From contig CBDEFO010000006.1 of the NCBI GenBank assembly GCA_965237525.1, positions 160,001 through 224,000 of the forward strand: a DNA stretch of 64,000 nucleotides, given 5' to 3'. A program made the position numbers and the translations under genes. Below the pieces are notes generated by a model. That model searched no databases. It saw nothing but the letters and a program-made list of their open reading frames with translations, and was not told the origin of the DNA. Shown here piece after piece: positions 3,384 to 63,331 of this stretch; positions within the stretch are counted from its first letter, which is position 1, and the number at the start of each line of letters is the position of its first letter. The DNA is from Candidatus Latescibacterota bacterium. GTDB taxonomy: Bacteria > Latescibacterota > CBDEFO01.

Positions 3384-4613
3384 ATGAAAAAAGGTTTTCT
3401 CAACTTCCCACGCCTGTCCCCGGTCCCCGATAGACTCAATCGGGGATCAATCAGGGACTTGTTCATGGACGTTGTGGCTATCATGTTAGCGCTCTCCCTA
3501 TCCAGCAGCGTTTCCGCCGACCCGATCCGGGGGGAAGTGCCGCAGACCGTGGCCGACATTTTCCACCCAGAAGTGGAAGGGGTCAGCGTCGAAACCTGGG
3601 TGGACAATCTGCAGATCCCCTGGTCTCTGGTTTTCCTGCCAAACGGTGATGCCCTTCTTTCGGAGCGGCGCGGTCGGATTCAACGTATTCCCCGCGGCCA
3701 CAACCAGCCGCAGCTTTATATCAAGCTCGACGAAGTAGCCCACGTCGGAGATGGGGGGCTCATGGGATTGGCTCTGCATCCCCAATTTACACAGCATCCC
3801 TATATTTACGCCATGCATAGCTATCGAAAGGATGACCAACTGTTCAATCGTCTCATTCGCCTGCGCGATCACGGTGATACGGGTGTTTTTGACAGCGTCA
3901 TTCTGGACAACATACCCGGTCACACTTATCATATTGGCGGCAGGATTGGATTTGGTCCGGATGGGATGCTCTATATCGGGACGGGCGATCTCTTGAACCC
4001 GCCGCTCTCCCAGGACCTAAACTCATGGGCAGGAAAGATTCTTCGCATCACGCCGGATGGGCAGATTCCGAAGGATAACCCCTTCCCCGGCTCCCCGATC
4101 TTTTCCTATGGGCACCGCGTTGTGCAGGGTTTGGCCTGGGATCCCGAAACCGGCATCTTGTTTAACTCAGAACACGGACCGTCTGATGAATGGCCGGGCG
4201 TCCTACATCGCGACGAAATCAACATCGTTCAGAAAGGAGCCAACTACGGCTGGCCCAATGTCGTCGGCGCGCCCCGCATTGCTGAATACAGGGATCCCAT
4301 CGCGATATGGAAAAAAGCCTCTGTCCCTCCCGCCGGAATGACCTTTTACCGCGGTGACCTCTTCATTGCCACGTTGCGCAGTCAAGCACTTATTCGCATC
4401 CAGTTTGAGGACGATAACGAAGACTATAAGGTGACGAATATCGAACGCTGGTTCGCTCGCGACCCGAAGAACGGATTCTACGGACGTCTACGTGACGTCA
4501 CCGTTGGACCGGACGGCCATCTCTACGTTTTGACCAGCAACACCGATGGACGAGCCGAATTGCGTCCAAACGATGACAAGATTCTACGCCTGAAGTTTGA
4601 GACCCCAGAATAA
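3384..4613 (+). CDS. PQQ-dependent sugar (glucose/sorbosone) dehydrogenase, copy 1
   Basis: GDGGLMGLALHP, HIGGRIGFGPDGMLYIGTGD, YGHRVVQGLAW, EHGP, NYGWP, GRLRDV motifs. Start placed at ATG 3384 after GGAGG. Confidence 0.9.
   Translation: MKKGFLNFPRLSPVPDRLNRGSIRDLFMDVVAIMLALSLSSSVSADPIRGEVPQTVADIFHPEVEGVSVETWVDNLQIPWSLVFLPNGDALLSERRGRIQRIPRGHNQPQLYIKLDEVAHVGDGGLMGLALHPQFTQHPYIYAMHSYRKDDQLFNRLIRLRDHGDTGVFDSVILDNIPGHTYHIGGRIGFGPDGMLYIGTGDLLNPPLSQDLNSWAGKILRITPDGQIPKDNPFPGSPIFSYGHRVVQGLAWDPETGILFNSEHGPSDEWPGVLHRDEINIVQKGANYGWPNVVGAPRIAEYRDPIAIWKKASVPPAGMTFYRGDLFIATLRSQALIRIQFEDDNEDYKVTNIERWFARDPKNGFYGRLRDVTVGPDGHLYVLTSNTDGRAELRPNDDKILRLKFETPE
3412..3456. repeat. 45-bp nested palindromic element inserted in frame in the signal-peptide coding region
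   Basis: Contains TCCCCGATAGACTCAATCGGGGA (3424-3446); absent from the paralogs at 24532-25716 and 25917-27080. Confidence 0.8.
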
Positions 4614-4933
4614 GAGGAAGAACGTGTTCGACAGACAAATAGGGTGTGTTGGCTTCGCTGTCTATAGATGGGATTAAGTCAGGCAAGGTTGAGTTTACGG
4701 CGCAGCATACATGCTCGCTCGGAATGGTCAAAAATCGCTGCGAATAGCCGGAAATCGAATGGCCTTTGGTGCAGGGTATTACATGGATTTAAAATCACGG
4801 GAACTGAAAGTCAAGGGCTAATATGCTGAGACACCGGCAGTGATCTTTCAGCAGAGGGCTGCATATCCGAACGTCGGATATCGCACCGAAATGCAGAGAT
4901 CTGAGAGATATTAACGATTGGGAGGTGTAACCA

Positions 4934-5854
4934 ATGAATTTAGAAGAATTTAAAGCGAGGTTGAAGGGGATTTACCCACCCATAGCCACAGCACTTACAG
5001 AGGATGAGGAATTCGATGAGCAGGGAATGAGACGCGTGATTCGGTATCTATTGGATGCTGGAGTGCATGGACTCTTCCTGCTGGGGTCAACTGGGGAGTC
5101 TGCGACCTTCACGACCGATGAGCGTCAACGGATTATAGAGGTAGTAGTAGATGAAGTAAGCGGCAAGGTTCCGGTCATGGCAAACGCAACTGATATCGGC
5201 ACCAAGAAGACAATAGAGAATGCCAGGATCGCCGCAGATTCAGGAGCAGATGCCATCATTCTCATGGCGCCATACTATTTTGCGCATACAGCGCCGGAGG
5301 TGATAAGCCATTTCAGGCATGTTCTGTCAGCCGTGGATTTGCCGATATTCATGTATAACTACCCATTTACCACGAATTTCAACATGACGCCAGACTTTGT
5401 GGGGCAATTAGCCGAGGAGGACAGGATTGTAGGGATAAAGGACAGCAGCAACGACTTCGAGCAGTTTCAGGAGCTGCTGCGAATGTTTAGAGGTTCGCAA
5501 GATTTCAAGGTCTTCCAGGGGGAGGAGTCTCAACTTGCTGCCAGCATTCTTCTGGGTGCGGATGGAGCGGTGATGACCGCAAATAATGTGGCGCCGAAGC
5601 TGTCTGTGGAGATATATGAGGCGGCATCTGCCGGCGACATCCAGAAGGCATCTCTTCTGCAGGACAAGTTGATGACTGCCTTTGATATCCTACAGGTCTC
5701 TGGAACGTTGACATCTGGATCGGCTATCGGCGGAGTTAAAGCGGCTCTTTCTTGCCTTGGGATCTGCGGCCCCACAGTTAAGAGGCCTTTCCTGCCTCTT
5801 GCAGACCAGGAAGTAAACAAGATCAAGAGGATCTTAGAAGTGGTCTCGGCTTGA
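4934..5854 (+). CDS. Dihydrodipicolinate synthase (DapA/NanA) family aldolase
   Basis: GSTGE motif, MYNYP, IVGIKDSS Schiff-base lysine. Confidence 0.9.
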   Translation: MNLEEFKARLKGIYPPIATALTEDEEFDEQGMRRVIRYLLDAGVHGLFLLGSTGESATFTTDERQRIIEVVVDEVSGKVPVMANATDIGTKKTIENARIAADSGADAIILMAPYYFAHTAPEVISHFRHVLSAVDLPIFMYNYPFTTNFNMTPDFVGQLAEEDRIVGIKDSSNDFEQFQELLRMFRGSQDFKVFQGEESQLAASILLGADGAVMTANNVAPKLSVEIYEAASAGDIQKASLLQDKLMTAFDILQVSGTLTSGSAIGGVKAALSCLGICGPTVKRPFLPLADQEVNKIKRILEVVSA

Positions 5855-6336
5855 TCTCGCTCTGCCCTGAGAAGGGCAAAAGCCTGCGCAAGGCTCCCTG
5901 TCGGGGACTGTCATAGGAGCCTAAAATCATAAGCTGAGAGAATAGTCCAGGCTTGGGCCGTCAGCTTGATTGATCCCCCATCCCCAGTTAAATCGGGGTT
6001 CAATCGGAGACCTACCGGTAAGGTCTACACATACGGACGGTGACGAAGATTCCATCTTACATTTACATTTCTGCTGCAGGGCAGGACTGGACCCCCTTTG
6101 CATCCGGGGTATAGACTACAACCAGACTTCGTACTTGCGCAGGCTTGGGGCAGGATGTACTTGGAAGTTGAGCATGTTGAACATCGGCGTTGTCGGGGAC
6201 GCTCATACCGTGGCGTTCGCCCGATTGATAAACGTGGAGAAGAGAATCCGCGGGGTGCGGGTGAGCCATGTATGGGGGGAAACTGCGTCTCAGGCGCGGG
6301 CGGCAGCGGCAGACGGCCAGATTCCCCATATCGTTA

Positions 6337-7857
6337 AAAGCCTTGTGAAATAGTTATGTCCCAGGCAGCGTCTGAAGCGCCGATTATGGGTCAAAGAGTA
6401 GCATATCGTATCGTTTTGCTGTGGAATAAGCAAAATAGTCTTATCAGAGTTCTGGTCAGCAAGGAACAGGAGCTGTTTGAAGAACAGGATGCACTGTCTT
6501 TGACAGACAGGGCACACATAGACGCTTTCCCCCTTCTTATGAAAGATACAAGCCTCTTGAGATTCTGTACTGTTGCAACAAGATTCAACTGTTCATTCAG
6601 TGAGGCTGGTCCTCTATAACGGGCTCGTCCCATACCGTGTTGTTGCCTGGCTTCAGCAAAGATATGTTCACTGCGTTTACGGAGTCTCCGGGAGAGTTTG
6701 TAGTCAGCTGTTAATGAGATAGACCGTGCATGATTTCTGGCTTTCGCCTCTCGCACTTTTCTATCCCGTTCGGCCTGAATATGTGCTGAATTTGTCTTGT
6801 TTTTCCATGTAGGAATCGGTTCAATCTTCTCATCGGCTCGCAGAGGAATATGGGGTATGATTCCCCGGTCAAGCACATCAGCGATAAAATTACCAGAACC
6901 GTAACCGGTATCGGCACTAAGTGTCTGAATGTCTTTGGGCATGGTGTATGTTTCAAGGTCATCTACCATCTTAAGGGCACTTTCGGGCTCTGCTGTCCCT
7001 GTCGCCTGCGTGCCCTGAGTCTCAAGGATTACTCTGCTTTTTGTGTCGATCAGATCATGGCCCATAAACGAGAGAAAAGCCCCTTTGCCCTTCGATTTGC
7101 TGTGTAAGCGCGCGTCAGGGTCTGTAGTCGAACGGTGTGTTTGGTTCGTCCACTTTTCACCATGAAAGTCTTTATCCTGAGGATGCCCGGACCTACCCTT
7201 TGTCTTATCACCTTCAAAACCGATTCCCTTGAGATAATCATCAAGAGAAACAGGGGGTTCTATCGGCTCAATACTTTTCACTGAAGCATCAGCTTGTATC
7301 TGAGTGCCGTCGACACTAAGGTGTTTACCGCTCACAAGACCGACATCTATGCAACACTGGACTACCTGACGCATTATCCGTTCAAACAACCCACTGGATG
7401 CCCACTTGTGATTGCGAAGCTTGTTGATCGTGCTCCTATCCGGAACCGCATCATCAAATGTCTGATGACAAAACAACCGATATGCCGCATGCATCCCCAC
7501 TTCCTGACAGAGCCGATTCTCACTCAAATTATACAGATAGCCAATAAGGATCATTCGAACAACTAATTCAGGATCAATACCGGGTCTGCCATTGTCAGGG
7601 CAATAACAATCTGATACAACGTCTCGTACAAATGAAAAATCAACTGCCTCATCAATCTGACGAAGGATATGATCCTCGGGAACTAAATCCTCCATCTGAA
7701 AATAGTGAAACATCGGATTTGTCTGTTCCTGCTTTTGTGGGGTCATTGTTTCCTCCATGTATAATATTATCAATAACATAATATAATACATCGGAACTGC
7801 TTTATCAATGCTTGTTCTATACTATTTTCTGAATCTAAGGGTTTTTCACAAGGCTTT
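6337..7857 (-). mobile_element. Insertion sequence, IS1182 family, copy 1 (1521 bp)
   Basis: Terminal inverted repeats AAAGCCTTGTGAAA / TTTCACAAGGCTTT, flanking TA duplication, near-identical copy at 60296-61816. Confidence 0.92.
6391..7746 (-). CDS. IS1182 family DDE transposase
   Basis: LVPEDHILRQID, GRPGIDP, PDRSTI, SVDGTQIQADAS, STTDPDARL, ADTGYGS, RKRSEHIFAE motifs. Start at MTPQ after GGAGG. Confidence 0.9.
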   Translation of the reverse strand: MTPQKQEQTNPMFHYFQMEDLVPEDHILRQIDEAVDFSFVRDVVSDCYCPDNGRPGIDPELVVRMILIGYLYNLSENRLCQEVGMHAAYRLFCHQTFDDAVPDRSTINKLRNHKWASSGLFERIMRQVVQCCIDVGLVSGKHLSVDGTQIQADASVKSIEPIEPPVSLDDYLKGIGFEGDKTKGRSGHPQDKDFHGEKWTNQTHRSTTDPDARLHSKSKGKGAFLSFMGHDLIDTKSRVILETQGTQATGTAEPESALKMVDDLETYTMPKDIQTLSADTGYGSGNFIADVLDRGIIPHIPLRADEKIEPIPTWKNKTNSAHIQAERDRKVREAKARNHARSISLTADYKLSRRLRKRSEHIFAEARQQHGMGRARYRGPASLNEQLNLVATVQNLKRLVSFIRRGKASMCALSVKDSASCSSNSSCSLLTRTLIRLFCLFHSKTIRYATL

Positions 7858-8776
7858 TAAGGAGCCCGAGGACTTGATTGGGGTGATAGACGCCGCTGTG
7901 GTGACCCACGTCCACGGGAAGTACCACTTGCAGGCGGCCAAGCCCCTACTGGAAGCCGGGATGCCGCTCTTCATCGACAAGCCGTTCTGCTGTAGCAGGT
8001 CCGGGGCCAAGCGCTTCCTGGCGCGGGCAGCCCAACTGGGGGTGCCAATCTGCTCCTTTTCGGTGATGCCCTTGCAGTCGTCCTTTTTGGATTTGAAAAA
8101 GCAGGTGCGCAAGCTGGGAGAGATATACGCAGTGGTCTCTACCGGACCCTGCGATATCAAGTCTAAGCATGGAGGAATCTTCTTCTACGGTATCCACCAG
8201 GTGGAGATGATCCTGGAACTGGTCGGACGCGAGGTGAGCTATGCACAAATCGGCAAGGGGACCGGGAAACATCACGTGGCCACTCTGGCCTTCAAAGACG
8301 GAAAGCTGGCCACCATGAACCTGATCGGGAAGGAAGCAGCTTTCCATTTGAGCGTCATCGGCCAAAAAGGCCGCATCGACCGGAGGATTGACCCTGACGA
8401 GAGCATGTTCCTTCCGGGAGTTCGCTCCTTTGTGCGCATGTTCAGGACCGGCAAAACTGATCAGACCGCGGAGACTCTGCTGGCACCGCTGGCGGTTCTG
8501 GAGGCGCTGGAAAAGTCCATTGCCCGCAAAGGGCAGGGTCAGAGTCTCCCTCCTAATGTAAATCACGGCTGAATCGCACTGACGCCGATCCAGTTGCTTA
8601 CCCAGTCGCTTACATGAAACACGTAATGCCGAAGCCGGGGGAACTGAGGAGCTTGGGAGCCTTCTTTCCCAGAGGAAATCTTGACATGCAAGACTTAGCC
8701 AGGGGAAGAATAGATACCTGTGTGCGCAGAGGCTTGGCCCAAAGAGGCGCTCAGGACTTAAAGAAAGGAAACAACC

Positions 8777-9895
8777 ATGCAAGTTGAAGTCCTTCACGAC
8801 CGGAGCGTTTCGCCTTCCGAGGAGCTCACCTGCGCCTACCCGTTGACCACGCTGGGCGCCGACGGCTCCATCGTCTGCCTCTACCGGCGCGGCCAGGAGA
8901 AGCACTCCTACGACGGCGTCCTGGTGTCACAGCGCTCGACCGACCTGGGAAGGACCTGGTCCGATCCAGTGACTGTCTTTGCGGGACAACACCTGAATCC
9001 GCCTCAGGCGGCCGTCAGCGGGGGTCTCTGCAAGTGCGGCGACGGTTCGTTGTTAGCTGTCATTGGAATCGTGGAGGTCACCAGACCGGATGTCTACATC
9101 TTCAGCGAGGAAGGCTTTACTCAGCGCCGCCTCTTGGCCATGGTCAAGAGCACGGATGGCGGCCGCTCGTGGAACCCGTGCAAGTACGTGGATATAGCTG
9201 CCCCGGGCAAACCCTTCGGCGCCTCCAAACCCTTGCTCCTCGACGACTGCCGGATCTTCTTTCCCGGGGAGCACCGCCACGAAGGGGGCCAGTTGGGCAT
9301 GTGCGCCAGCTTCTCCTCCGACCACGGGGAGTCCCTCGAACCGGTGCACGACTGCATCGTCGATCCCACTGCTCAGCTGAGCCTGTGCGATGCCCGTTTC
9401 GCCCTGTTTGACGACGGCCAGATGCTGGCCCTGCTATGGACCTTCCGCCAGAGCGACGAGCAGACCGTGGAGGTGCACCGCTCTGTGTCCGACGACCAGG
9501 GCCGCACCTGGTCTGAAGCCCGTCCAGTCGGCCACCTCGGCCAGATCACGGCGCCACTCGTCGTAGCTGGCGACAGCGTAATAGCGGCCAGCAATTACCG
9601 CTGGCCTCCCCAGGGTATCCGCCTCTGGCAGTCACGGGACAGAGGGGAGACCTGGCCGGTGGGGGAGTCCCTGCAGATGTGGGACGCGGATCAAAAGCAG
9701 ATGCTGGCCCAACCCCTGCAGGTGGGCGAGCAGAGCCAAAACGACAGCGTGTGGGACGCCCTGCCCGGATTCACCTTCGGCACCCCGGATCTGACAGCCC
9801 TGCCCGACGGTACTGTACTCCTGACTTACTACGCCGAGATTGACGGCTTAGCCCAGGTCAGAGCATGCCGCTTCACTGAAAGAGACAGGCAATGA
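8777..9895 (+). CDS. BNR/Asp-box repeat (sialidase-like) glycosidase
   Basis: Repeated SxDxGxTW boxes (STDLGRTW, STDGGRSW, SDDQGRTW, SRDRGETW) and a C-terminal FGTP...YY. Confidence 0.82.
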   Translation: MQVEVLHDRSVSPSEELTCAYPLTTLGADGSIVCLYRRGQEKHSYDGVLVSQRSTDLGRTWSDPVTVFAGQHLNPPQAAVSGGLCKCGDGSLLAVIGIVEVTRPDVYIFSEEGFTQRRLLAMVKSTDGGRSWNPCKYVDIAAPGKPFGASKPLLLDDCRIFFPGEHRHEGGQLGMCASFSSDHGESLEPVHDCIVDPTAQLSLCDARFALFDDGQMLALLWTFRQSDEQTVEVHRSVSDDQGRTWSEARPVGHLGQITAPLVVAGDSVIAASNYRWPPQGIRLWQSRDRGETWPVGESLQMWDADQKQMLAQPLQVGEQSQNDSVWDALPGFTFGTPDLTALPDGTVLLTYYAEIDGLAQVRACRFTERDRQ

Positions 9896-10002
9896 AGGTC
9901 ACCGAGATGGAAGTCCGCGAGACTCCTCTCGGATTCCTGGACTGGCACGCCTACCAGCTTGACCACCAGTTCCAGTGGCGCGAGCGCGCCTTGATGAAAT
10001 AA
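9892..10002 (+). pseudogene. Truncated N-terminus resembling mandelate racemase/enolase superfamily proteins
   Basis: ATGA overlap with the upstream stop. MKVTEMEVRE... stops after 36 codons, just before the repeat at 10012. Confidence 0.4.
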
Positions 10003-10011
10003 ACTTCAGAG

Positions 10012-16495: not shown

Positions 16496-16670
16496 TGTAG
16501 GGGCAGACCCGTGTGTCTGCCCTTGGGGCGAGTGGACCTCGCCCCTACATTCTGTTAGCTGTGACCGAGATTGCTTCGCTATCGCTCGCAATGACCCAAA
16601 CTGAGCAACGTCATTGCGTGGAGGCCTGCCCCCGAATGATTGATCCCCGATAGACTCAATCGGGGACTCA
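16496..16670. repeat. Cluster of REP-like palindromes from three families
   Basis: TGTAGGGGC...GCCCCTACA; GAGATTGCTTCG...CTCGCAATGAC; TCCCCGATAGACTCAATCGGGGA. Confidence 0.75.
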
Positions 16671-16814
16671 AGGGCTGGAAGGTGGTCCCCCCTGACTACT
16701 CCCTCCTGCCTTTAAGACTGCCTGAGTGACCTTCGTGTAGATTCCACATCTGCAAAGGTTGCCCTTGGCTTGGCCGATCCCCGATAGACCTAATAGCGGA
16801 TTAAGGAGAGTCCT

Positions 16815-17512: not shown

Positions 17513-17722
17513 GGGAAGGAGAGAGGGTTCCAACAAATAGCGTTGCTTAATCGAAGTTGCTTTCCAGGGGCCACTACGACTCTTCCTGCTTTATACGTCC
17601 CCGATTAAATCGGCGGCGGGGATCGGCTTCTGCTGGCTTCTTCATAAGCACGCTTTGTTGATCTTCTCGAGGCGGGAACTTGGCGGACATCCACAGATCC
17701 GTAATCGGCACTGGGCAGGTCC

Positions 17723-18627
17723 CTAGGGAATACCCAGCTCTTCAACAGCCTGATGCAGGTCGGCCGGGAGAGGACCAGCCTGCGCTGCAGTTACGCTCTC
17801 TTCGATCTCGGCAGGCGTTGCTGCGCCGACCAGAATCGTTGTAATAGCTGGATCGGCTATCAAGTAGCGGATCGTCAGAGCGACCAGAGATAGGCCGGAG
17901 GCTTTCTGCAAGTCGTTCAGACGGGCATCTGGACTCTGCCCCTTATCGGCCCCGATGGTCTTAATCACACCCGCTGTGATGAAGGCTACTCCCTTCTTGC
18001 GAGCCAGCGGCAACGCCGTCCGACGCGCCTTTCGGGACAGTAGCGTGTAGTCGTAGGCGACCAGACAGGCGTCCACTTCCACATGGTGGAGGATGTGCGC
18101 GAGCTCCTCAGCGGGTCGGACGTAATCCCGATGAAGCGGCAGAGTCCGCGCTCCCTGGCCTCGTGGAGCACCTCCATCACCGGGGCGTTGGGAAGGTCGT
18201 AAGCCTCGTCAAGGCTCAGCAGCTGTTCGTTTGGCACGCCGTCCTTCCACCAGCAGGCCCACTCAGCCATATGTACCTGCAGTACGTCCACTTGGCTGCG
18301 GCGGAGGGCACGCAGGTTCTCCCAGAGCTGGGCACGGAAGGCATCCCGTGATCGGAAGTCGGCCGGCGCGGCAAGGTAGCCCAGCTTTGTTGCCAACAGA
18401 TATGGCTCCGTGCACCCCTCAAGCGCGTTGCCCAGTATTACCTGTGAAGCCCCCTGGCAGTAGGCCGGTGAGGTGTCAAAATAGCTGACGCCCAGTTCCA
18501 GCGCCCGGCGCACCGTGGCCACACCTTCGGTCAGAGAATACTTATCGAGAGAGCCGCCACCCAGACCCACGACTGTTACATGCTCCTCTGTCCTGCCGTA
18601 AGGGCGTCTTTCAATTGCTGCTTTCAG
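17723..18627 (-). pseudogene. Aldo/keto reductase, frameshifted near 18113, with CTG at the start position
   Basis: Two overlapping ORFs together reconstruct a paralog of 19791-20708; YFDTSPAY, LATKLG, LQVH. Confidence 0.85.
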
Positions 18628-18670: not shown

Positions 18671-19711
18671 TTAGAATATTGCGCTCATAAATTTGATTTG
18701 TGGTAAAGAATGGACGTTATCAGCTATTTTCACCATTTCCTCATATGATCTTCTCCTGGCCAGTCTCATCTTAAGTACGTTGTATTGTCTGAATCTCCAA
18801 AACGAAACTGCAACAGCAGCATACTCTACAAAATCCTTTAGTGCATTTCGTTCCTCTTGTTCTAAAGGTCTTATTTTCTGATATCCATCAACAAGCGCCC
18901 TTATTTTTTCTACAGATACATTCTCTCTCTCTATACATGCTGCTATTATGGCAACGCCAATATCAAATATACAAAAATCGTTACTTGATTCTTCAAAATC
19001 AATAATAGCTTTTATGTTTTCACAGTCAAAGATTATGTTTTCAGGGAACATATCACCGTGTACCAAGCCTCTGGGAAGATTGGGACATAAACTTTCCCGC
19101 AGGTATTTAGATTTCTCTCTGAGCCATTCAATGTACTCGTGCTGTACGTCCAATTCAGTTACTTCTGGAAAAGCTTTAATTCCATAGGGATATGCTATAG
19201 AGAGAAAACCAAGCGGCGCTATTTGATGCAATTGTGCTATCGTTTCCCCCAGCTGCGATAACATCCCTGGAGTCAAGTTGTTTAGCACTTGACCTTCAAG
19301 GTACTCCTTAAGTATTATAGATCTAGTTCCCTTATATTTGTCCCTGATTGAACGTATCGGGGATTTGACAATGAAGTTTCCTTCTTCGGACGGAACTAAC
19401 CTTGAAGTAGGAAAATTGTGTTCTTCCAGAATCCGTAATAGAGCCACGAGGTTTTCTATTCCTAGTCCTTGTACTCCTGAAGATGTCTTCTCGTCAGCTT
19501 TAGTATTCAGCAGTTCCGAATCACAGGCTGTAAGTACATAAACTCCTTGTGATGTGTGTAGCACGTAACTGGAGTTAGTTTGACCTTCCTTAAGTGGATA
19601 GTGTTGAGCAATATCTTGTATGCCAAATTTTCTGGCTATGTCCACAATCTCTTCGGACCTTAGTTGCGTATAGCTATCTATTTCATCCTGCTTCGAGTGA
19701 GAATCCATCAA
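18671..19711 (-). CDS. Homoserine kinase type II / APH-like phosphotransferase
   Basis: EGQTNSSY, IAQLH, LPRGLVHGDMFPENI, IIDFE; visibly AT-richer than its neighbours. Confidence 0.8.
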   Translation of the reverse strand: MMDSHSKQDEIDSYTQLRSEEIVDIARKFGIQDIAQHYPLKEGQTNSSYVLHTSQGVYVLTACDSELLNTKADEKTSSGVQGLGIENLVALLRILEEHNFPTSRLVPSEEGNFIVKSPIRSIRDKYKGTRSIILKEYLEGQVLNNLTPGMLSQLGETIAQLHQIAPLGFLSIAYPYGIKAFPEVTELDVQHEYIEWLREKSKYLRESLCPNLPRGLVHGDMFPENIIFDCENIKAIIDFEESSNDFCIFDIGVAIIAACIERENVSVEKIRALVDGYQKIRPLEQEERNALKDFVEYAAVAVSFWRFRQYNVLKMRLARRRSYEEMVKIADNVHSLPQIKFMSAIF

Positions 19712-19790
19712 GCATGCCCTCTGCTAAGGTAATTTATTGCTGCCCAGACAGACTCTTCCTGCTTCATACGTCCCCGATTAAATCGGGGGT

Positions 19791-20708: not shown

Positions 20709-20752
20709 GATTAATTCCTCCTGATCTTTCCTGGAAACGATCCCCTATAGGT

Positions 20753-21670
20753 TCACTCGGGGTCAGGAGACGTTTCCAGCTCTTCAAGGGCCTGATGTAA
20801 GTCAGGCGGAAGTGCGCCAGCCTGGGCTGCGACGACGCTCTCTTCAATCTCGGCAGGCGTCGCTGCGCCGACCAGAATCGTTGTAATAGCTGGGTCGGCT
20901 ATCAAGTAGCGGATCGCCAGTGCGACCAGAGATAGGCCGGAGGCTTTCTGCAGGTCATTCAAGCGGGCATCGGGACTTTCCCCCTTATCAGCTCCGATGG
21001 AGTCAATCACCCCCGCTGCGATGAAGGCTACTCCCTTCTTGCGAGCCAGCGGCAACGCCGTCCGACGCGCTTGCCGCGACAGAACCGAGTAGTTATAGGC
21101 GACCAGACACGCATCCACCTCCACGTGGCGCAGCACACGGGCAATTCGGTCTGCACTGTTTCCCGTGATTCCGATAAATCTACATAGACCTTGCGCTTTT
21201 GCTTCTCTTAGAACCTGCATTATGGGCGCGTTGGCAAAATCGTAATCGTACTCAGGTTGAATGTGCGCGCTGTTCGCAGCATCATCGGACCACCAGCGGT
21301 GAAGAATCGCTTCGTGCACCTGCAGCGTGTCCACGCTGTCACGGCGCAGTAAACGCAGATTCTCATCAAGCTGTGTGCGCAGGGCGTCAGGCGAACGGTA
21401 ACGGGTCGGGCTGGCTAGGAATCCGAGCTTGGTTGCCAGAAGATACTCTTCCGATCGTTCCTGCAGGGCCACACCATAGATTCCCTGCGATAGTCCACTG
21501 CCGTAGAGAGGAGAGGTATCGAAATAGCTGACGCCCAGCTCCAACGCCCGGCGCACTGTGGCCACGCCGTCGGCAAAGGAGTGCTTATCGAGAGAGCCGC
21601 CACCCAGACCCAGGACAGTCACATGCTCCTCTGTCCTGCCGTAAGGGCGTCTTTCAATTGCTGTTGTCAT
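20753..21670 (-). CDS. Aldo/keto reductase, tandem near-identical paralog of 19791-20708
   Basis: Same length (305 aa) and same motifs. Confidence 0.92.
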   Translation of the reverse strand: MTTAIERRPYGRTEEHVTVLGLGGGSLDKHSFADGVATVRRALELGVSYFDTSPLYGSGLSQGIYGVALQERSEEYLLATKLGFLASPTRYRSPDALRTQLDENLRLLRRDSVDTLQVHEAILHRWWSDDAANSAHIQPEYDYDFANAPIMQVLREAKAQGLCRFIGITGNSADRIARVLRHVEVDACLVAYNYSVLSRQARRTALPLARKKGVAFIAAGVIDSIGADKGESPDARLNDLQKASGLSLVALAIRYLIADPAITTILVGAATPAEIEESVVAAQAGALPPDLHQALEELETSPDPE

Positions 21671-28182: not shown

Positions 28183-28284
28183 GATTAATTTCTCCTATTC
28201 TCCTGCCACCTCATGCGCAACACTGGATTGATCCCCGATAGACTCAATGGGGATTCAATCCCCGAAAAGTTAATCCAATGAGCA

Positions 28285-43254: not shown

Positions 43255-43274
43255 GACTCCTTTTTTGAACCTAT

Positions 43275-45823: not shown

Positions 45824-45868
45824 CCAGTCCCCGATCCCCAATAGTATCAATTGGGGATCGGGGACTGG
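45824..45868. repeat. Nested palindrome (CCCCGA family inside itself)
   Basis: CCAGTCCCCGA[TCCCCAATAGTATCAATTGGGGA]TCGGGGACTGG. Confidence 0.8.
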
Positions 45869-45949
45869 ATTTTAGTACCATTTCTTGATATGGTATCTAC
45901 CGCATATGGGGCAGGGAGGAGGGTGGTCCCTGTCTACCCACGATTGAAT

Positions 45950-46864
45950 CTATCGGGGGCTACTGTCTACTGTATAGCCTATTCCCCATCCCAATTTCTC
46001 TCGCAGAAGAGAGTAGAACGATAGGCCGCTCAAGTTCATCAAATTGATCGAAAAGGGAGCCTTACTTACAACCACTCTGCTGTCAGGTTCCAGATCTCCT
46101 GCCGTGCGGCTGTCAACAGTAAGCATCACATCATCGCCCTTCTGTGCCTTAAGCCGGACAGTGATCACCTCATCTTCTGGAACTACCATGCTCCTCAGGG
46201 ACAGAGAATGAGGACATATCGGAGAGGCTATGATGGCCTCCATCCCGGGGTGCACTATAGGTCCGCCCGCAGACAGCGAATAAGCCGTGGATCCTGTTGG
46301 ACTCGATACCACCACTCCATTTCCCATGTAAGACGCCACCATCTCGTCGTTTATGTACATTTCGATCTCCAGGATCCTGGCGCATGATCCTTTCTCCACC
46401 ACCACGTCGTTGAGGGCAAAGAACCTTTTGTCCTCGCCCTCAAGCCCGGCCGAGAGCACCATCCTCCTGTCCACTGTAAACTTGCCTGCTTTAAGCTCTC
46501 TTACGCCCTCCTCCAGATTCTTGGGAGATACATCGGCCAGAAATCCCAATCTCCCTAAATTGACTCCCAATATCGGCACACCTGAATCTCCGACAGCCTC
46601 AGCTGCCTTCAAGATAGTTCCATCTCCCCCGAACGACACCACCACATCGACACTTTCGGCCAGATCGTCCTTGGGCAGTAACCTGCCCTCTACAGCGGAC
46701 GCTTTGAACCGATCCACAGTTTCTTTCAGGTCGTCAACTGCATAAAGTTCAAGGCCTTCCTGTTCCGCTATCCTTATAAATTCCCTTATGACACTTTCCA
46801 CCCTGGGGCGGACACTTTCCCTCAGATCAGATGGGATGCCGAATATGCCTATCTCCCTAATCAT
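45950..46864 (-). CDS. nadK: NAD(+) kinase
   Basis: GGDGT, GVNLGRLGFL, ALNDV, SPTGSTAYSLSAGGP. Confidence 0.95.
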   Translation of the reverse strand: MIREIGIFGIPSDLRESVRPRVESVIREFIRIAEQEGLELYAVDDLKETVDRFKASAVEGRLLPKDDLAESVDVVVSFGGDGTILKAAEAVGDSGVPILGVNLGRLGFLADVSPKNLEEGVRELKAGKFTVDRRMVLSAGLEGEDKRFFALNDVVVEKGSCARILEIEMYINDEMVASYMGNGVVVSSPTGSTAYSLSAGGPIVHPGMEAIIASPICPHSLSLRSMVVPEDEVITVRLKAQKGDDVMLTVDSRTAGDLEPDSRVVVSKAPFSINLMNLSGLSFYSLLREKLGWGIGYTVDSSPR

Positions 46865-49099: not shown

Positions 49100-49327
49100 A
49101 AGAATGCTCCAAAAAAATAGACAGTAGCCCTGATAGATCCAATCCGAGGTAGACAGGGGCACCATCTGCCCTCCCTTGTCCCCGATTGACTCTATCGGGG
49201 GGCGGGGGGAAGCAATCTCGTAGACAGTAGTTGGGGAGAGGTGGGGCCGTCCTGTATGCTGTTTACTGCTTTTGCCTGCCTTCACTCATCTAATTTGCGA
49301 GCATAATCCACAGCTTAGCGCGCATAA

Positions 49328-50899: not shown

Positions 50900-50929
50900 C
50901 TTTATTTCCTTTCTGTCTATAAACAAAAA

Positions 50930-51110
50930 TTCCCCTGTACCGCGTTATACTCTCCCCAGAAGCATCGAAGGAATCTTTGGGGAACAGTGGCTAAACCGTG
51001 TTTTGACTTTCAAAAGGAGTCTCCTGATCCTTAGACACGCGGCGGGGATTCTAGAAACCGTATATTATGTTGGTGGAATTCTTTGGAGGCGTTCCATCTA
51101 AAGGGCCGAG
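50930..51110 (-). ncRNA. ssrS: Probable 6S RNA (ends approximate)
   Basis: ORF-free interval between zapA and rny, a common 6S position; the 5' CCCT... and 3' ...TACAGGGG ends can close a long hairpin. Confidence 0.6.
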
Positions 51111-51406
51111 GTGTGTGGACAAATTTCCAGGAAGAGACACTCTACGGGAGACTGCTTAGCCCACTTCGTGGCTAGCTTCCAGCCCAGGAAAGGGGCCACG
51201 CCGCCTCACAACGAAGTTGCGATGGCCTTTGGTATTGCTTGCTTTTGCCTTGAGTGCCATTGAGAGGGGCAAAGCCTGACGCCGTCTGGCGTTGCGACCC
51301 CGAAGGAGACGACAGGCGGAACCAGAACCAATCTGAAGGGATGGGAGGAGGCACCTGGCTACCCCCCGACCCCCAATAGGTTAAATTGGGGGCTATCGTC
51401 TGTCTA

Positions 51407-51715
51407 TTACTGTCTACTAATCTGCGTCAACTCTCCCTCCAAAAGATGGGAAAGTTTCTTGACCCTGTCATCTAAATCCAATAGTACAGATTCTCCCTCT
51501 CCTCTTTCTTTGAACAGTTCATCTGCCAGGTTTAAGGCTGCAACTATAGCCGCCTTCATTGCGGAGTGCACCGGAATATCCTTTGCCGCTTGCCTCATCT
51601 TATTGTCAACGTAGCGGGCCACCGACTTTACGTATTTCGGGTCTGCCTTCACTTGAACAGGATAATCAGTTCCGAATATTTTTACTACTATCGCCTCTTT
51701 ATCCAGCAATTTCAC
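51407..51715 (-). CDS. zapA: Cell division protein ZapA
   Basis: VKIFGTDY, VARYVDNKM, AIVAALNLADELF. Confidence 0.92.
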   Translation of the reverse strand: MKLLDKEAIVVKIFGTDYPVQVKADPKYVKSVARYVDNKMRQAAKDIPVHSAMKAAIVAALNLADELFKERGEGESVLLDLDDRVKKLSHLLEGELTQISRQ

Positions 51716-54553: not shown

Positions 54554-54711
54554 AGACAGAATCGTCCCCGATTGAGCCCCCGATAGATTCAATCGGGGGT
54601 CGGAGATCGCTTTGCTGCCTCCAATTAGATCGGAGGTCGCCATGATGTTACTTACTTTTGCCTTGACTGACTACAGGGTGCCAAACCCGGAGGCAACCTC
54701 ATAGGCGCAAG

Positions 54712-55788
54712 TTAGAATTGAGAGATAAAGCGCAAGTCACTTTCCAAAAAGAGTCTTATGTCGTCAATGCCGTACTTGACCATAGCTACCCTTTCGATTC
54801 CCATCCCGAATGCGTAGCCCGTCCATACCTCGGGGTCGTAGCCTACGGCTCTGAACACCTCAGGATCCACCATGCCGCATCCTGCAATCTCGATCCAGCC
54901 GGTGCCTTTGCAGACACTGCATCCCTTCATATCGCATAGGACACACGAAAAGTCATATTCTGCGCTCGGCTCTGTGAACGGAAAGAAGTGGGGGCGGAAT
55001 CTTACCTTCACATCTTCGCCGAGTATCTTCCTTGCAAAGACCGATATGACGCCCTTGAGGTCTCCAAACGTCACATCGTTGTCCACGTATAGACCTTCCA
55101 CCTGATGGAAGATGAAATGGTGCGTGGCGTCTGACGTATCCTTCCGATAGACCCTTCCAGGGGAGATTATTCGAACGGGGGGAGATGTCTTTTCCATCAC
55201 CCGTATCTGCACCGGTGAGGTCTCGGTTCGAAGCAGAAGATCCCCCGTAGATTCAATCGGGGACAAGATGTAGAACGTATCTCTGGTATCCCGTGCGGGG
55301 TGATCCGGGGGTGTGTTCAAAGCGTCAAAGTTGTAGTACTCGGTCTCCACCTCGGGTCCATCTGCAACCGAAAAGCCCATACTCGTAAATATCTGAACAA
55401 TCCGGTCTGTGACCACTGTCAGAGGATGTCTCTTTCCAAGTGTTCTTTTTCTTCCGGGTAGAGTTATATCCACAGCCTCCTGGAATTCCTTGGCCCCCTT
55501 CTCTATCTTGACAATGATCGCATCTATCCTGCGGGTTATCTCATTTTGAGCCAGTCCGGCGGCTTTGCCCACATCTTTGCGAAGCTGGGGAGACAGTGAG
55601 CCTATTCCTCTTGACATCCTGGTTAGTTGCCCGCTTTTCCTTCCCAGATACTTGATCCTGATCTGCTCCAATTCGTTTGGATCAGAGCACGATTCAAGTT
55701 CCTTGATCGCCTCCTGTCTGATATTCTCTATGACCTCTACCAGCCCATCCCCGTCCGGCACACTATCTTTTGTCTTTTCAGCCTCCAT
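54712..55788 (-). CDS. pheS: Phenylalanine--tRNA ligase alpha subunit
   Basis: NFDALN, HPARD, FHQVEGL, FPFTEPSAE, AFGMGIER. Confidence 0.97.
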   Translation of the reverse strand: MEAEKTKDSVPDGDGLVEVIENIRQEAIKELESCSDPNELEQIRIKYLGRKSGQLTRMSRGIGSLSPQLRKDVGKAAGLAQNEITRRIDAIIVKIEKGAKEFQEAVDITLPGRKRTLGKRHPLTVVTDRIVQIFTSMGFSVADGPEVETEYYNFDALNTPPDHPARDTRDTFYILSPIESTGDLLLRTETSPVQIRVMEKTSPPVRIISPGRVYRKDTSDATHHFIFHQVEGLYVDNDVTFGDLKGVISVFARKILGEDVKVRFRPHFFPFTEPSAEYDFSCVLCDMKGCSVCKGTGWIEIAGCGMVDPEVFRAVGYDPEVWTGYAFGMGIERVAMVKYGIDDIRLFLESDLRFISQF

Positions 55789-56035
55789 ACATAACTCTTC
55801 CAAAATAGTAGACTGTTGACCGAGCACCACCTCCGCACCCTTCAGATTGCTTCGGGGCTTTGCCCCTCGCACTGACTAAGGATCGAAGCAGAGTAGCGTC
55901 ATTGCGAGCCCACGATTGAATCCATCGGGGCAGCCTAGAGCCTTTAGCCCAGAGCGAAGCGAAGGGTCTGCCAAGCAATCTCGCAGACAGCAGTCAGGGA
56001 TACTCCTCTTCTGTCTACCGTATGCTGTCAACTGT

Positions 56036-56395: not shown

Positions 56396-56404
56396 CTTCT
56401 TCTC

Positions 56405-57233: not shown

Positions 57234-57319
57234 CCTTTATCACCTCCGTATAAACAAAACGTGTAACACAAAGCATAGCGAAAAAATAGAGTGCGCTCTA
57301 CGTTACACGTCTTCAAGAA

Positions 57320-59245: not shown

Positions 59246-59375
59246 TTTTTCTTGAGATCTCCTTCTTTGCAAAGCGCCAACATCAAGCAGGGGTGAGGTC
59301 ACCCCGCCCTTACCATAAAGGTTACAGCGTAGATCAAAGTACGAACCCACAATTATTACGAATACTATCTGTTAA

Positions 59376-59404
59376 AATCTATATTGTTAACTCTGTTTTG
59401 TCAA
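59376..59404 (-). promoter_or_regulatory. sigma70-type promoter upstream of thrS
   Basis: TTGACA-N17-TAGATT. Confidence 0.55.
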
Positions 59405-59563
59405 GAGAAAACGGTCGAGCGCAAACGATAGCAGACAGGTAAGATTGCTTCATCAGACAGGAATGTCTGACCCACCAGAAGAGTGTGTTGATAATGTGGT
59501 TGGTAGGACAGACATTTTTGTCTGTCCATTTGCTTCATCAGACAAGAATATCTTCCCTACTGT

Positions 59564-59881
59564 CTACTTACTTTCCTGGAGGCGAACAGATATTGCCATT
59601 TCCTCTTCGGCTTGAGGTATCATTCCCTTACGCTGATACATCATCGAAAGACTACTGTGAGTTAAGGGGTCGTCTGGTGTGATCTCCACAGCCTTCTTGA
59701 TGTACTCCAAAGCCTGATCGTACATCTCCTTTTTCTCATAGACGTGCCCCAAAGCCAAAAGCACCTCCGCAAATTGGGGATCCATTTCCAATGCCTTATT
59801 GAGATCCTCCAAAGCCCCGTCCAGATCTCCCTGTCCGTATTTGGTTACTCCCTCCATATACAGATCTTCTTTTTGTCCCAT
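59564..59881 (-). CDS. Small tetratricopeptide repeat protein
   Basis: ALEDLNKALEMDP and ALEYIKKAVEITP TPR patterns. Confidence 0.85.
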   Translation of the reverse strand: MGQKEDLYMEGVTKYGQGDLDGALEDLNKALEMDPQFAEVLLALGHVYEKKEMYDQALEYIKKAVEITPDDPLTHSSLSMMYQRKGMIPQAEEEMAISVRLQESK

Positions 59882-60154
59882 AGTAGTGTCCTTGCATTTA
59901 GGGTATTATCAGATGACCAGCTACTTCGTAAATTGCCTCAATCAAACCTAAGCTTTTTTATCCTTTGTGTCAAGTCCAAAATAGTAGGCAGCATACAGTC
60001 AGAGGGAGTCTGGGGAGATAGGTTTGCCCTCGGTCACAATGACACTTATTATCTACTAAGTGTTCCGTCAATGTGAAGGTTGAAAGCCCCGGAGCCCCGA
60101 GAGAATCAATCGAGCTCTCAAGTGACAGGTGGCGGTGCCCTGTCTACTTTTCAT

Positions 60155-60181
60155 TAAAGGATACCTACAGGGTGCCGATAT
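60155..60181 (+). promoter_or_regulatory. sigma-28 (FliA/SigD) promoter
   Basis: TAAA-N15-GCCGATAT, matching the consensus and pointing at the flagellin gene. Confidence 0.85.
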
Positions 60182-60295
60182 AATAGAGGGAGAACATTAT
60201 AGTATGAGTGAACAGACGACACTACGTCCAGAATCGCCTCAAGCCGGAAGGGAAGATATGAAAACCGCTAGAAATATCTAAAGCGAGAGACATTA

Positions 60296-61816
60296 AAAGC
60301 CTTGTGAAATAGTTATGTCCCAGGCAGCGTCTGAAGCGCCGATTATGGGTCAAAGAGTAGCATATCGTATCGTTTTGCTGTGGAATAAGCAAAATAGTCT
60401 TATCAGAGTTCTGGTCAGCAAGGAATAGGAGCTGTTTGAAGAACAGGATGCACTGTCTTTGACAGACAGGGCACACATAGACGCTTTCCCCCTTCTTATG
60501 AAAGATACAAGCCTCTTGAGATTCTGTACTGTTGCAACAAGATTCAACTGTTCATTCAGTGAGGCTGGTCCTCTATAACGGGCTCGTCCCATACCGTGTT
60601 GTTGCCTGGCTTCAGCAAAGATATGTTCACTGCGTTTACGGAGTCTCCGGGAGAGTTTGTAGTCAGCTGTTAATGAGATAGACCGTGCATGATTTCTGGC
60701 TTTCGCCTCTCGCACTTTTCTATCCCGTTCGGCCTGAATATGTGCTGAATTTGTCTTGTTTTTCCATGTAGGAATCGGTTCAATCTTCTCATCGGCTCGC
60801 AGAGGAATATGGGGTATGATTCCCCGGTCAAGTACATCAGCGATAAAATTACCAGAACCGTAACCGGTATCGGCACTAAGTGTCTGAATGTCTTTGGGCA
60901 TGGTGTATGTTTCAAGGTCATCTACCATCTTAAGGGCACTTTCGGGCTCTGCTGTCCCTGTCGCCTGCGTGCCCTGAGTCTCAAGGATTACTCTGCTTTT
61001 TGTGTCGATCAGATCATGGCCCATAAACGAGAGAAAAGCCCCTTTGCCCTTCGATTTGCTGTATAAGCGCGCGTCGGGGTCTGTAGTCGAACGGTGTGTT
61101 TGGTTCGTCCACTTTTCACCATGAAAGTCTTTATCCTGAGGATGCCCGGACCTACCCTTTGTCTTATCACCTTCAAAACCGATTCCCTTGAGATAATCAT
61201 CAAGAGAAACAGGGGGTTCTATCGGCTCAATACTTTTCACTGAAGCATCAGCTTGTATCTGAGTGCCGTCGACACTAAGGTGTTTACCGCTCACAAGACC
61301 GACATCTATGCAACACTGGACTACCTGACGCATTATCCGTTCAAACAACCCACTGGATGCCCACTTGTGATTGCGAAGCTTGTTGATCGTGCTCCTATCC
61401 GGAACCGCATCATCAAATGTCTGATGACAAAACAACCGATATGCCGCATGCATCCCCACTTCCTGACAGAGCCGATTCTCACTCAAATTATACAGATAGC
61501 CAATAAGGATCATTCGAACAACTAATTCAGGATCAATACCGGGTCTGCCATTGTCAGGGCAATAACAATCTGATACAACGTCTCGTACAAATGAAAAATC
61601 AACTGCCTCATCAATCTGACGAAGGATATGATCCTCGGGAACTAAATCCTCCATCTGAAAATAGTGAAACATCGGATTTGTCTGTTCCTGCTCTTGTGGG
61701 GTCATTGTTTCCTCCATGTATAATATTATCAATAACATAATATAATACATCGGAGCTGCTTTATCAATGCTTGTTCTATACTACTTTCTGAATCTAAGGG
61801 TTTTTCACAAGGCTTT
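60296..61816 (-). mobile_element. Insertion sequence, IS1182 family, copy 2 (1521 bp)
   Basis: Same terminal inverted repeats as copy 1; TA duplication at 60294-60295 and 61817-61818. Confidence 0.92.
60350..61705 (-). CDS. IS1182 family DDE transposase
   Basis: Differs from copy 1 at only a few residues (K/E, H/Y, C/Y). Confidence 0.9.
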   Translation of the reverse strand: MTPQEQEQTNPMFHYFQMEDLVPEDHILRQIDEAVDFSFVRDVVSDCYCPDNGRPGIDPELVVRMILIGYLYNLSENRLCQEVGMHAAYRLFCHQTFDDAVPDRSTINKLRNHKWASSGLFERIMRQVVQCCIDVGLVSGKHLSVDGTQIQADASVKSIEPIEPPVSLDDYLKGIGFEGDKTKGRSGHPQDKDFHGEKWTNQTHRSTTDPDARLYSKSKGKGAFLSFMGHDLIDTKSRVILETQGTQATGTAEPESALKMVDDLETYTMPKDIQTLSADTGYGSGNFIADVLDRGIIPHIPLRADEKIEPIPTWKNKTNSAHIQAERDRKVREAKARNHARSISLTADYKLSRRLRKRSEHIFAEARQQHGMGRARYRGPASLNEQLNLVATVQNLKRLVSFIRRGKASMCALSVKDSASCSSNSSYSLLTRTLIRLFCLFHSKTIRYATL

Positions 61817-61818
61817 TA

Positions 61819-63088
61819 GTGACGCGGATAAATTCTAACATGGAAGCTCTGGACGCCGCAAATGCTCTTAGCAAAATCAACAAGAGCCTGGACACCCATC
61901 AGGCCAGACTCGCCACGGGCAAAAGGATCAACACCGCTGCCGACGACGCTGCAGGACTATCTTTGGCTACCAAGTTTAAGGTAAGATCAGAAGGTCTGGG
62001 TGTTGCACTGAACAACATAGGAGATGCCAGGAACCTTATGGCCGTCGCCGAAGGACACCTCCAGACCATCAGCGACATCCTGGGACAGATAAAAGCCAAG
62101 GCGAACCAGGCTGCGAACGACACGCTGGGAGCTTCGGAACGGCAGGCCCTAAAGAGCGAGATCGAGCAGTTGGCCGCGGAGATTGACGATCAGGTGGAAC
62201 AGGCTCTGTTCAACAATATCGAGATTTTGAAAACCACGACCAGCGCGTTTAACTTCCAGGTGGGAGCAGGCACTGTCGATACGATAAGGTTCGATCTTAC
62301 ATCGTCTGCTGTGGGATACACGACAGGATACACATCCGCACAGCTCGGTGTGGATGTAGGCGCAGTGACAGCTTCTGTATCAACGACCTACAGTCCCCGG
62401 ACGAATCGATGTATCTTTGGCCACGTCCACAGCGCGGAACGATGCCTTAAGTGAACTTAAGGCAGGATTCTACACAGTGGAAGTGACAGACATTGACGTT
62501 AATTCTGCTGGGAAAGGGGATCTTACGTTCAGGATAAGAGATTCGTCGGGCAATATAGTCTCGATAGATAGCGATGGAGACGGCACAGGCTCAGACACAG
62601 ATACTACTATAACCGTTGTTATCGACAAGGAAATACCATCACCACCGGGACCAAACAAACCAGGGGCTAGCGCCACGATCGATCTGGGTGTGGGATTTAA
62701 ATTACGCTTCTCTGACGTGAACTCCACTGATGACCCTACATCCTTCGGAGTCCAGTACACTCCCAGAGGAAACACAGTAAGCTCCAACGCCCAAGCGTCA
62801 GCATTCATCCAGAAGATTGACGCAGCCATAGACAATGTCTCCAAGGGACTGAGCTTCATTGGGGCAATTACCAACAAGCTGACGTTCAAAGAAGACTCAT
62901 TGTCAAGTGCAGAGACGAACACAGAAGCAGCCAAGAGCAGGATTCTGGATGCCGACATGGCGTTAGAGCAACTGGAATCCACCAAGTTGCAGATATTACA
63001 GCAGACATCCACAGCCGTACTTGCTCAGGCTAATATCATCCCACGATCGGTATTACAACTATTCCAGTCCAGAGATGACCTCCCATAA
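61819..63088 (+). pseudogene. fliC: Flagellin, frameshifted near 62395-62398 and separated from its promoter by the IS
   Basis: N-terminal RLATGKRINTAADDAAGL and C-terminal AKSRILDADMALE...QILQQTSTAVLAQAN lie in two frames. Confidence 0.88.
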
Positions 63089-63331
63089 ATCAGCAGACAG
63101 TAGTAAGCAGATAGGCTCCCCATAGATTCAATCAAGGATTGCTTCGGAGTTGAACCGCTCACCATGGCAAGGCGCGGCAACGTCTTTGCAAGTCCTGTAA
63201 ATCGTCATTGCGAGGGATCTCAAGCTGCCCCGCTAGGAGTTGCCATCCAGATGCAGATGCGAAACGGAACCAAACTCTCCAGTCTATCTATCCAAGTCTC
63301 TAAAGCACACATGCTGACCTGAATTTTCTCC

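Follow-up and report, generated by a model that had tools for sequence, protein, structure and literature searches.

A 23-nt hairpin repeat of a Latescibacterota genome as a probable mobile unit that replaces about four bases at its target

How micro-repeats resembling repetitive extragenic palindromes (REPs) or small dispersed repeats (SDRs) spread is a long-open question. Among the SDRs, SDR5 of the Nostocaceae is 21 nt long, enters the HIP1 sequence between bases 3 and 4, and is described from Nostocaceae only (Elhai et al. 2008, Genome Res 18:1484, as cited in PMC4390886, PMC5861425, PMC13756078, PMC2884548 and PMC3116915). REPs and REPINs tagged by GTAG or CGTC appear, in excerpts of PMC3733652, PMC8266576, PMC3116915 and PMC6006769, as imperfect palindromes of 20-40 nt that occur in hundreds of copies, mostly between genes. 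Hairpin single strands are cut and rejoined by HUH enzymes, which choose their sites by DNA-DNA pairing, and the TnpA-REP cleavage sites given lie between C and T or between C and A (PMC8266576, in part). Here, we describe a 23-nt hairpin repeat in a 64,000-nt stretch of a Candidatus Latescibacterota genome (contig CBDEFO010000006.1, positions 160,001 to 224,000), called the window below. An original prediction, made from the letters alone, had taken it for an uncharacterised family, similar to REPs or MITEs (miniature transposable elements with inverted repeats), that targets its own hairpin and is moved in trans. The hairpin is very probably a mobile insertion unit and is likely among the smallest mobile DNA units. 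Its copies were counted in the source genome (G000, 4.58 Mb) as two sets, 555 within 4 mismatches of a first consensus and 614 with the refined consensus YCCCCGATAGAHTCAATCGGGGR, and were compared with a congener (G001, 2.8 of 4.5 Mb read) that is 86-97% identical to the window.

The hairpin resembles the SDRs in being about 20 nt long and gene-less, in entering short palindromic targets precisely at a set position, and in having filled and empty alleles. Compared through citing descriptions, it is unlike SDR5, which may share the target loss, in that its insertion costs the target about 4 bases, its copies nest in one another and several phyla carry it; HIP1 is rare in the source genome (57 sites) and absent among the targets. 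With the REPs of those excerpts it shares length, imperfect palindromy, copy number and mostly intergenic placement, some in-frame copies in genes, the 8-bp stem of the CGTC-1/2 families and, in some copies, a 4-nt foot. Unlike them, it has no constant GTAG/GTGG or CGTC tag, the commonest 5' 4-mer at its foot occurring in 39 of 555 copies and GTAG in 17 of 555. Its polymorphic units are single hairpins or nests instead of inverted doublets, it flanks no REP-associated tyrosine transposase (RAYT) gene, its filled/empty junctions do not fall at the TnpA-REP cleavage sites, and the genome's own GTAG- and CGTC-type repeats are among its targets. Class-3 TnpA-Y1 hairpins bearing a CnGA foot (PMC6006769, in part) are likewise atypical and of high copy number, and CCGA and CTGA are among the commoner feet here. 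CnGA feet nevertheless make up a minority of copies, CCGA feet are mostly the outer arms of nests, and no class-3-like TnpA-Y1 gene was found by family, phmmer or motif scans, which included no class-3 profile. Bacterial MITEs and the Rickettsia palindromic elements (PMC2229807, in part) are also non-autonomous, palindromic and tolerated in frame in conserved proteins, as the hairpin is in PheS and in a RelA/SpoT-like protein; the hairpin is five times shorter, with no TA ends, no target duplication in its main class and no matching ends in the two abundant insertion sequence (IS) families.

The predicted kinship with REPs and MITEs holds in that this behaves as a gene-less insertion unit with empty alleles, and fails in the strict sense of either class. 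It is not MITE-like because the main class lacks a target duplication and neither abundant IS family has matching ends, and it is not a strict REP because it has neither a constant GTAG/CGTC foot nor a linked RAYT. It is an SDR/REP-like micro-element with a distinctive junction rule, and not a tagged REP, a MITE or an operator. Neither this family nor its junction rule turned up in the literature searched, whose coverage left out most subscription journals, and the label "undescribed" applies to the rule, but very small mobile repeats have already been published as SDRs.

The 23-nt unit is present at about 600 places in the source genome. In the window, the refined consensus gives 15 matches at 10 distinct sites (3 mismatches or fewer) against a mean of 0.00 in 100 shuffles. 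The genome-wide motif count that had been proposed as a check returned the 555 copies, and neither of two order-5 Markov genomes contained any. The unit forms an 8-bp stem and a 7-nt loop on either strand, its ends coinciding with the stem foot. The two ends pair as T-A in 308 of 724 distinct copies and as C-G in 244, and positions 6 and 18 pair as G-C in 615 and as A-T in 35; this covariation of compensated pairs indicates that the fold matters. A 19-nt subfamily of 33 copies corresponds to the 23-mer minus TAGA, mostly with one more change, and may be the scar left by a departing inner copy.

Evidence for mobility comes from the comparison of filled and empty sites. Collinear flanks were found for 339 of the 614 source-genome copies and for 312 of 387 congener copies, giving 651 orthologous pairs. 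These comprise 239 shared pairs, 227 without an anchor, 80 that differ otherwise, 29 repeat-carried duplicates (single events that IS or other repeats have multiplied) and 76 distinct sites that are not shared. The original prediction had named fixation at orthologous sites, with no empty alleles, as the finding that would count against it; the 76 sites show otherwise, and the congener provides the empty alleles. At these sites the 23-mer replaces 4 bases in 22 cases, 5 in eight, 3 in seven and 2 in four. Net gains of +27 account for 11 further cases and +26 for three, 12 are scattered over other lengths, and nine 11-nt cases look like 12-nt slippage between repeated nest arms. Slightly looser anchors yielded 42 replacement events, 23 of which replace exactly 4 nt (10 of the 15 events within older copies, 13 of the 27 others). 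The hairpin inserts in both orientations. In a repeat of other organisms it replaces 8-10 or 14 nt, each case probably being one event propagated by the repeat, and some sites resemble 4-nt duplications.

The empty alleles bear directly on whether the hairpin is a functional host signal (an operator, terminator or methylation site) held by selection. The hairpin is a palindrome, GANTC is kept in the loop of 474 of 614 copies, and about 120 sites are common to the congener. Empty alleles refute a host signal as the origin of the family, and nests point the same way. Divergent spacers have the lowest density (0.31 per kb, compared with 0.59 in tandem spacers), and orientation to transcription is even (151 sense, 149 antisense). 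Copies lie inside IS elements and genes. GANTC shows no genome-wide skew (observed/expected ratio, O/E, 1.04), which leaves a methylation link without support in word counts. An Rfam scan of the window returned two tRNAs and no RNA family at the hairpin, and there were no RNA records carrying the hairpin among the matches listed. Selection for a host signal is an extremely improbable origin, and a known transcription-factor operator, which had been listed as a possible refutation, is contradicted by the empty alleles and by the minimum in divergent spacers. Single sites may have been co-opted later.

The ends, junctions, nesting site and covariation are observed; the mechanism is read from them. 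Tentatively, and with somewhat less than even confidence, we favor a folded single strand that a nick-and-join enzyme acting in trans, most likely HUH/Y1, joins into a target nicked twice about 4 nt apart, with pairing of ends or flanks helping site choice. The hairpin would move as a folded single-stranded DNA intermediate, two nicks would open a gap of about 4 nt that the stem foot would roughly span, the enzyme would join the hairpin into this gap, and pairing of the unit ends or donor flanks with the target would likely help to pick the site.

The +27 class introduces another possibility. Its 11 rows reduce to 8 clean loci once two complex rows and one double count are removed. The extra 4 nt, at one stem foot, read CCTG, CTTG, CAGG, TTGA or TTCA. 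An explanation of the extra bases as a target duplication was dropped for most of these sites, since an exact duplication is present at only 1 of the 8, and there is no signal of target duplication over the 555 copies. With single-strand joining, the 27-nt form would be a hairpin closed by a 4-nt loop. Restriction-type nucleases and type II topoisomerases cut with a 4-nt stagger, and a double-strand cutter of this type could create a break that captures the hairpin, the overhang being trimmed (+19) or kept (+27). The symmetry of the two classes about 23, the loosely palindromic unique targets (R-TCGA-Y), exact or near duplications at some +27 sites (TTGA, CCTG, TTTA) and 22 matches to N6/N4 DNA methyltransferases in the source genome would all fit. 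Most +27 tails are not target copies, however, no single restriction site could cover targets this degenerate, the genome shows no avoidance of TCGA (O/E 0.94), and the source of the hairpin would be left unexplained, which makes a double-strand cutter improbable.

The junction does not depend on the 23-mer itself. A 19-mer replaced the same 4 nt at two loci, and at wholly empty sites a 42-mer stands in place of 4 nt and a 43-mer in place of 3 nt; since the 19-nt, 42-nt and 43-nt units follow the same junction, the rule is independent of cargo. These units also bear on a route in which a small RNA is copied by a reverse transcriptase primed at a nick, with small target deletions. Target-site deletion, variable junctions and the same sequence across phyla would fit a fixed template, and the congener has two reverse transcriptase genes. 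Many variants and composites move, though, and not one template; there is no Rfam family match, and no RVT_1 match in the source genome, so the RNA route seems very improbable. The two congener reading frames (C1:3731487-3732290, 268 aa, and 3677790-3679328, 513 aa) have no counterpart found in the source genome. The family offers a sharp, assayable signature: the gain of a 23-nt hairpin with the loss of four bases, at a known spot within its own sequence and with any cargo.

That known spot lies within older copies. Fifteen of the 42 events fall inside an older copy, which as a class makes up 1.2% of intergenic DNA (p 1e-18). A self host fits 60 of 738 distinct copies; in 38 of these 60 the bases lost are exactly positions 8-11 (TAGA), with both orientations represented, and random controls gave 0. 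Deletion of the inner copy cannot restore TAGA/TCTA, so the polarity is insertion with loss. At three nests (C3:400127, 54577 in the window and G001 offset 2117232) the outer arm carries a locus-specific base in both alleles. The predicted targeting of its own hairpin is therefore borne out for self-copies, which are struck far above chance, but targeting of hairpins in general finds no support: 26 of 41 empty sites are stem-enclosed against 54% of controls (p 0.27). A preferred insertion site of its own is also seen in each of the GAGATTGC..GCAATGAC repeats, GTAG repeats and AGTAGAC heptamer tracts, host repeats that we read, from their ends, as CGTC- and GTAG-type. In addition, a dispersed repeat of about 200 nt with about 37 copies in the source genome (e.g. 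C8:1479300-1479480) carries one or two hairpins as passengers. The window holds the following copies.

3424..3446, plus strand: perfect T..A-ended copy (0 mismatches) in the nest remnant 3417-3458; common to the congener.
5974..6010, plus strand: decayed composite of an outer copy and a 19-nt-type inner copy replacing positions 8-11; common to the congener.
16640..16666, plus strand: 16644-16666 is a perfect copy, its 5' foot carrying a TTGA tail; left flank unalignable in the congener.
16778..16800, plus strand: degenerate copy with 4 mismatches; present in the congener too.
17598..17616, plus strand: 19-nt short variant; the congener allele is a nest with a short inner copy.
19341..19363, minus strand: in-frame copy in an APH-family kinase open reading frame (ORF; 18671-19711); no congener orthologue aligned.
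19771..19789, plus strand: short 19-nt variant preceding the right arm of an outer copy.
20741..20763, plus strand: degenerate copy; the congener allele has an inner copy (net +20).
28232..28254, plus strand: copy with 3 mismatches and TTGA at its 5' foot; no alignable congener orthologue for the predicted nest 28226-28265.
45828..45864, plus strand: nest of an inner compensated variant (45835-45857, A6-T18 pair) within 7-nt outer arms; common to the congener.
45937..45959, minus strand: C..G-ended copy in an AGTAGAC heptamer tract.
49179..49201, minus strand: loop-variant copy (AGAGTCA) of a nest remnant within a GAGATTGC-type repeat; congener allele +12 nt.
51363..51392, plus strand: 7-nt outer arm and compensated variant (51370-51392) between zapA and rny; congener allele +35 nt through further nesting.
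54565..54606, plus strand: proven nest, in which the inner copy (54577-54599) replaces TCTA of an outer copy of opposite orientation; empty in the congener, net +19.
55241..55263, plus strand: in-frame copy in pheS; common to the congener.
55909..55931, minus strand: copy inside a GAGATTGC..GCAATGAC repeat.
63116..63138, plus strand: degenerate copy with 4-5 mismatches.

All 13 positions originally given for the family, in both orientations across the window, correspond to a copy or a remnant, and both short variants (17598 and 19771) were confirmed as members of the 19-nt subfamily. The copies given as 45938, 55910 and 63118 really begin at 45937, 55909 and 63116, and two further copies, at 19341 and 20741, had been overlooked. 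The copies at 51370 and 63116 are degenerate (4-5 mismatches). The five predicted nests differ in standing. The nest at 54565-54606 is proven by its empty allele, where the congener has TCTA at the place of the full copy at 54577; 45824-45868 forms a single hairpin of 45 nt (-23.6 kcal/mol, z -9.4); and 51362-51398 and 3417-3458 are nest remnants. As predicted, no transposase in the window is linked to the motif: two IS1182-family transposases are present, and their ends are unrelated to it. In near-relative contigs (6 sequencing runs, two 19.5-kb stretches), no gain or loss of a hairpin is among the differences listed, and the contigs often break at copies.

Nests are not fully independent evidence for the 4-nt rule because of variant-context coupling; the 13 non-self events are. 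In these, 36 of the 52 replaced bases agree with the two bases at either end of the unit (p 3e-11), and for the outer bases alone 15 of 26 match (p 0.006 by permutation of end types). Variants keep to particular contexts. Of the A6-T18 variant, 29 of 35 distinct copies are nested, compared with 140 of the 689 other copies; nesting also applies to 25 of 29 copies of the AGAGTCA variant, and heptamer tracts hold 46 of 244 C..G-ended copies against 4 of 308 T..A-ended ones. The A6-T18 variant also accounts for 5 of the 15 self events, as the unit that enters a resident single copy, against 0 of the 27 others; composite movement explains part of the coupling and not this difference. The likeness of the replaced bases to the hairpin ends, together with the confinement of variants to host repeats, suggests that target choice is guided by base pairing. 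If pairing does pick the targets, this would be a very small steerable DNA insertion reaction. Blunt entry of a 19-nt core at TC^GA was rejected as the rule, since TCGA makes up only 3 of the 9 non-self T..A targets and the 4-mers lost to C..G-ended copies are unrelated to it.

The same coupling invites an explanation by host repair with no dedicated enzyme, in which short-homology gene conversion or template switching draws on donors with target-like flanks, in a homing-like manner among repeats and through 2-nt microhomology in unique DNA. The restriction of variants to host repeats, the single fixed site per host repeat, the occasional conversion of flank bases while the net gain stays +19, and the lack of an enzyme common to the carriers would all be expected from it. 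Host repair accounts less well for exact stem-foot ends with a 4-nt loss in unique DNA and IS copies, where the likeness is only 2+2 nt (13 of 27 non-self events), and for an identical 21-mer in other phyla. Moreover, 273 kb of young IS DNA hold no copies, which fits a lost factor better than standing repair. On balance, host repair seems possible and somewhat unlikely.

Several points weigh against enzymatic joining of a single strand. One-base co-conversion of flanks and variant-context coupling fit gene conversion equally well. Junction lengths vary (2-5 nt, besides the 8-10 and 14 nt in the repeat of other organisms), and the junctions lie away from the TnpA-REP cleavage sites. There is no strand bias relative to transcription and none evident along the congener. 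The comparison covers 2.8 of 4.5 Mb of the congener, leaves 227 of the 651 pairs without anchor and includes no outgroup; neither an excised intermediate nor within-species polymorphism was seen. No enzyme gene is tied to the hairpin and no constant guide tetranucleotide accompanies it. The congener, with about 387 copies and private insertions, lacks a RAYT, an IS200 TnpA and a small GIY-YIG match, and the RAYT-like gene of the source genome has its own GTAG repeats and a score below the family cut-off.

A RAYT/TnpA or GIY-YIG gene flanked by the motif, which the original prediction had proposed to look for, was not found in the source genome or the congener. Y1_Tnp gave 0 matches in the two genomes, as did IS200 TnpA. 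The RAYT model found the one below-cut-off gene in the source genome (C8:1476118-1476648) and none in the congener; there is no second HUH-Y1 protein in the source genome and no HUH-Y1 in the 2.8 Mb of the congener. Of the GTAG repeats that flank this gene, one holds a hairpin copy, and the gene itself carries an in-frame GTAG hairpin, a feature described for subclass 2.4. Of 6 carrier genomes tested, 5 have a RAYT-like gene, whose presence does not scale with copy number. A small GIY-YIG gene of the source genome (107 aa, C4:479836-480159) lies between inverted TGTC-ATTCCCG hairpins and has no congener match; the other GIY-YIG matches, in frames of 517-669 aa, are read as UvrC, except a partial match in one further genome (G169). 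DUF559 matched 2 long ORFs in the source genome and 0 in the congener. No nuclease was recognized by eye among 49 genes flanked on both sides by the hairpin, one of which was scanned in Pfam. Copy-dense clusters hold an APH kinase and proteins without a Pfam match, and nothing in them is linked to the hairpin; 80 metagenome loci showed no recurrent neighbor except host repeats and ordinary genes. Movement in trans thus stays an inference, as no enzyme was found.

The distribution among organisms is narrow within the phylum and scattered beyond it. The 18-nt core was found in 2 of 41 relatives searched and, allowing one mismatch, in 4 of 168 genomes of the phylum, being abundant only in the source genome (394) and the congener (387). 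A scan of genome contigs gave at least 55 loci, at least 43 of them in one Latescibacterota record and at least 10 in four Deltaproteobacteria metagenome-assembled genomes (MAGs). Among the matches listed, a Thermodesulfobacteriota MAG and a Nanoarchaeia MAG contributed one locus each, the archaeal one being possible contamination. MAGs of other phyla contain an identical 21-mer, and five carrier genomes outside the Latescibacterota have 34, 11, 5, 8 and 1 copies. Metagenome loci with the hairpin range from 37 to 68% GC, and viral contigs gave 0 matches. A bolder and unlikely reading is that of an undescribed cross-phylum system in which an enzyme swaps single-stranded DNA hairpins of 19-46 nt into a 4-nt gap, their own ends and carried flanks picking the target by pairing. 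If true, no self-guided insertion system would be smaller, and its chemistry, the replacement of four bases, would be unusual.

The hairpin also enters genes. Well inside long ORFs lie 49 of the 614 copies, ORF interiors making up about 57% of the genome (figures that rest on crude ORF calls with slightly different margins between counts). Copies with the 4-nt tail are somewhat enriched there (17 of 49 against 87 of 448, p 0.016). Compared with paralogues or orthologues, proteins with an in-ORF copy gain mostly 6, 7, 9 or 11 residues; it is likely that in genes only the in-frame junction variants (+18, +21, +27, +33) survive selection. PheS has 6 extra residues at the hairpin relative to structures 4P71 and 2RHQ, whereas the APH paralogue is too distant to size the insertion at 19341. 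Peptides such as SPIDSIGD, PDRFNRG and PRLNLSG are thereby written into conserved proteins such as PheS. In a Deltaproteobacteria MAG and a metagenome contig, the hairpin lies in frame in an ORF labeled by eye as RelA/SpoT-like.

IS elements help to date the activity. The IS1182-family element of the window (6334-7857 and 60293-61816) has about 130 near-identical full copies (99%) in the source genome and 3 in the 2.8 Mb of the congener. It inserts at YTAR-like 4-mers, and the copy at 6334 is missing in two related sequencing runs. A second abundant IS of 1.3 kb, putatively IS256-like by its ends, occurs at C1:64271-65578 and about 45 other places. The ends of both families are unrelated to the hairpin. 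No hairpin copy was found in 139 young IS1182 pieces (206 kb) or in 54 young pieces of the second IS (67 kb), and 5 older IS1182 pieces hold 2 copies. The lack of copies in young IS DNA points to most hairpin activity after the split from the congener began and before the IS burst, a timing that we infer from these counts.

Some minor observations concern the window and the two genomes. The spacer between zapA and rny, 480 nt long (50926-51407), is a usual place for 6S RNA; no Rfam match to 6S RNA was obtained there, even at a loose threshold. Length differences of 21 nt at 49301-49321 and at 8534 in related strains are unrelated to the hairpin. The matches to N6/N4 methyltransferases number 6 in the congener, compared with the 22 mentioned above, and CTAG is strongly avoided in the source genome (O/E 0.27). 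An aldo-keto reductase gene, one of several paralogues between 17 and 34 kb, lies in two pieces (17723-18570), and one related sequencing run has a 1-nt insertion in this region, at 18113.

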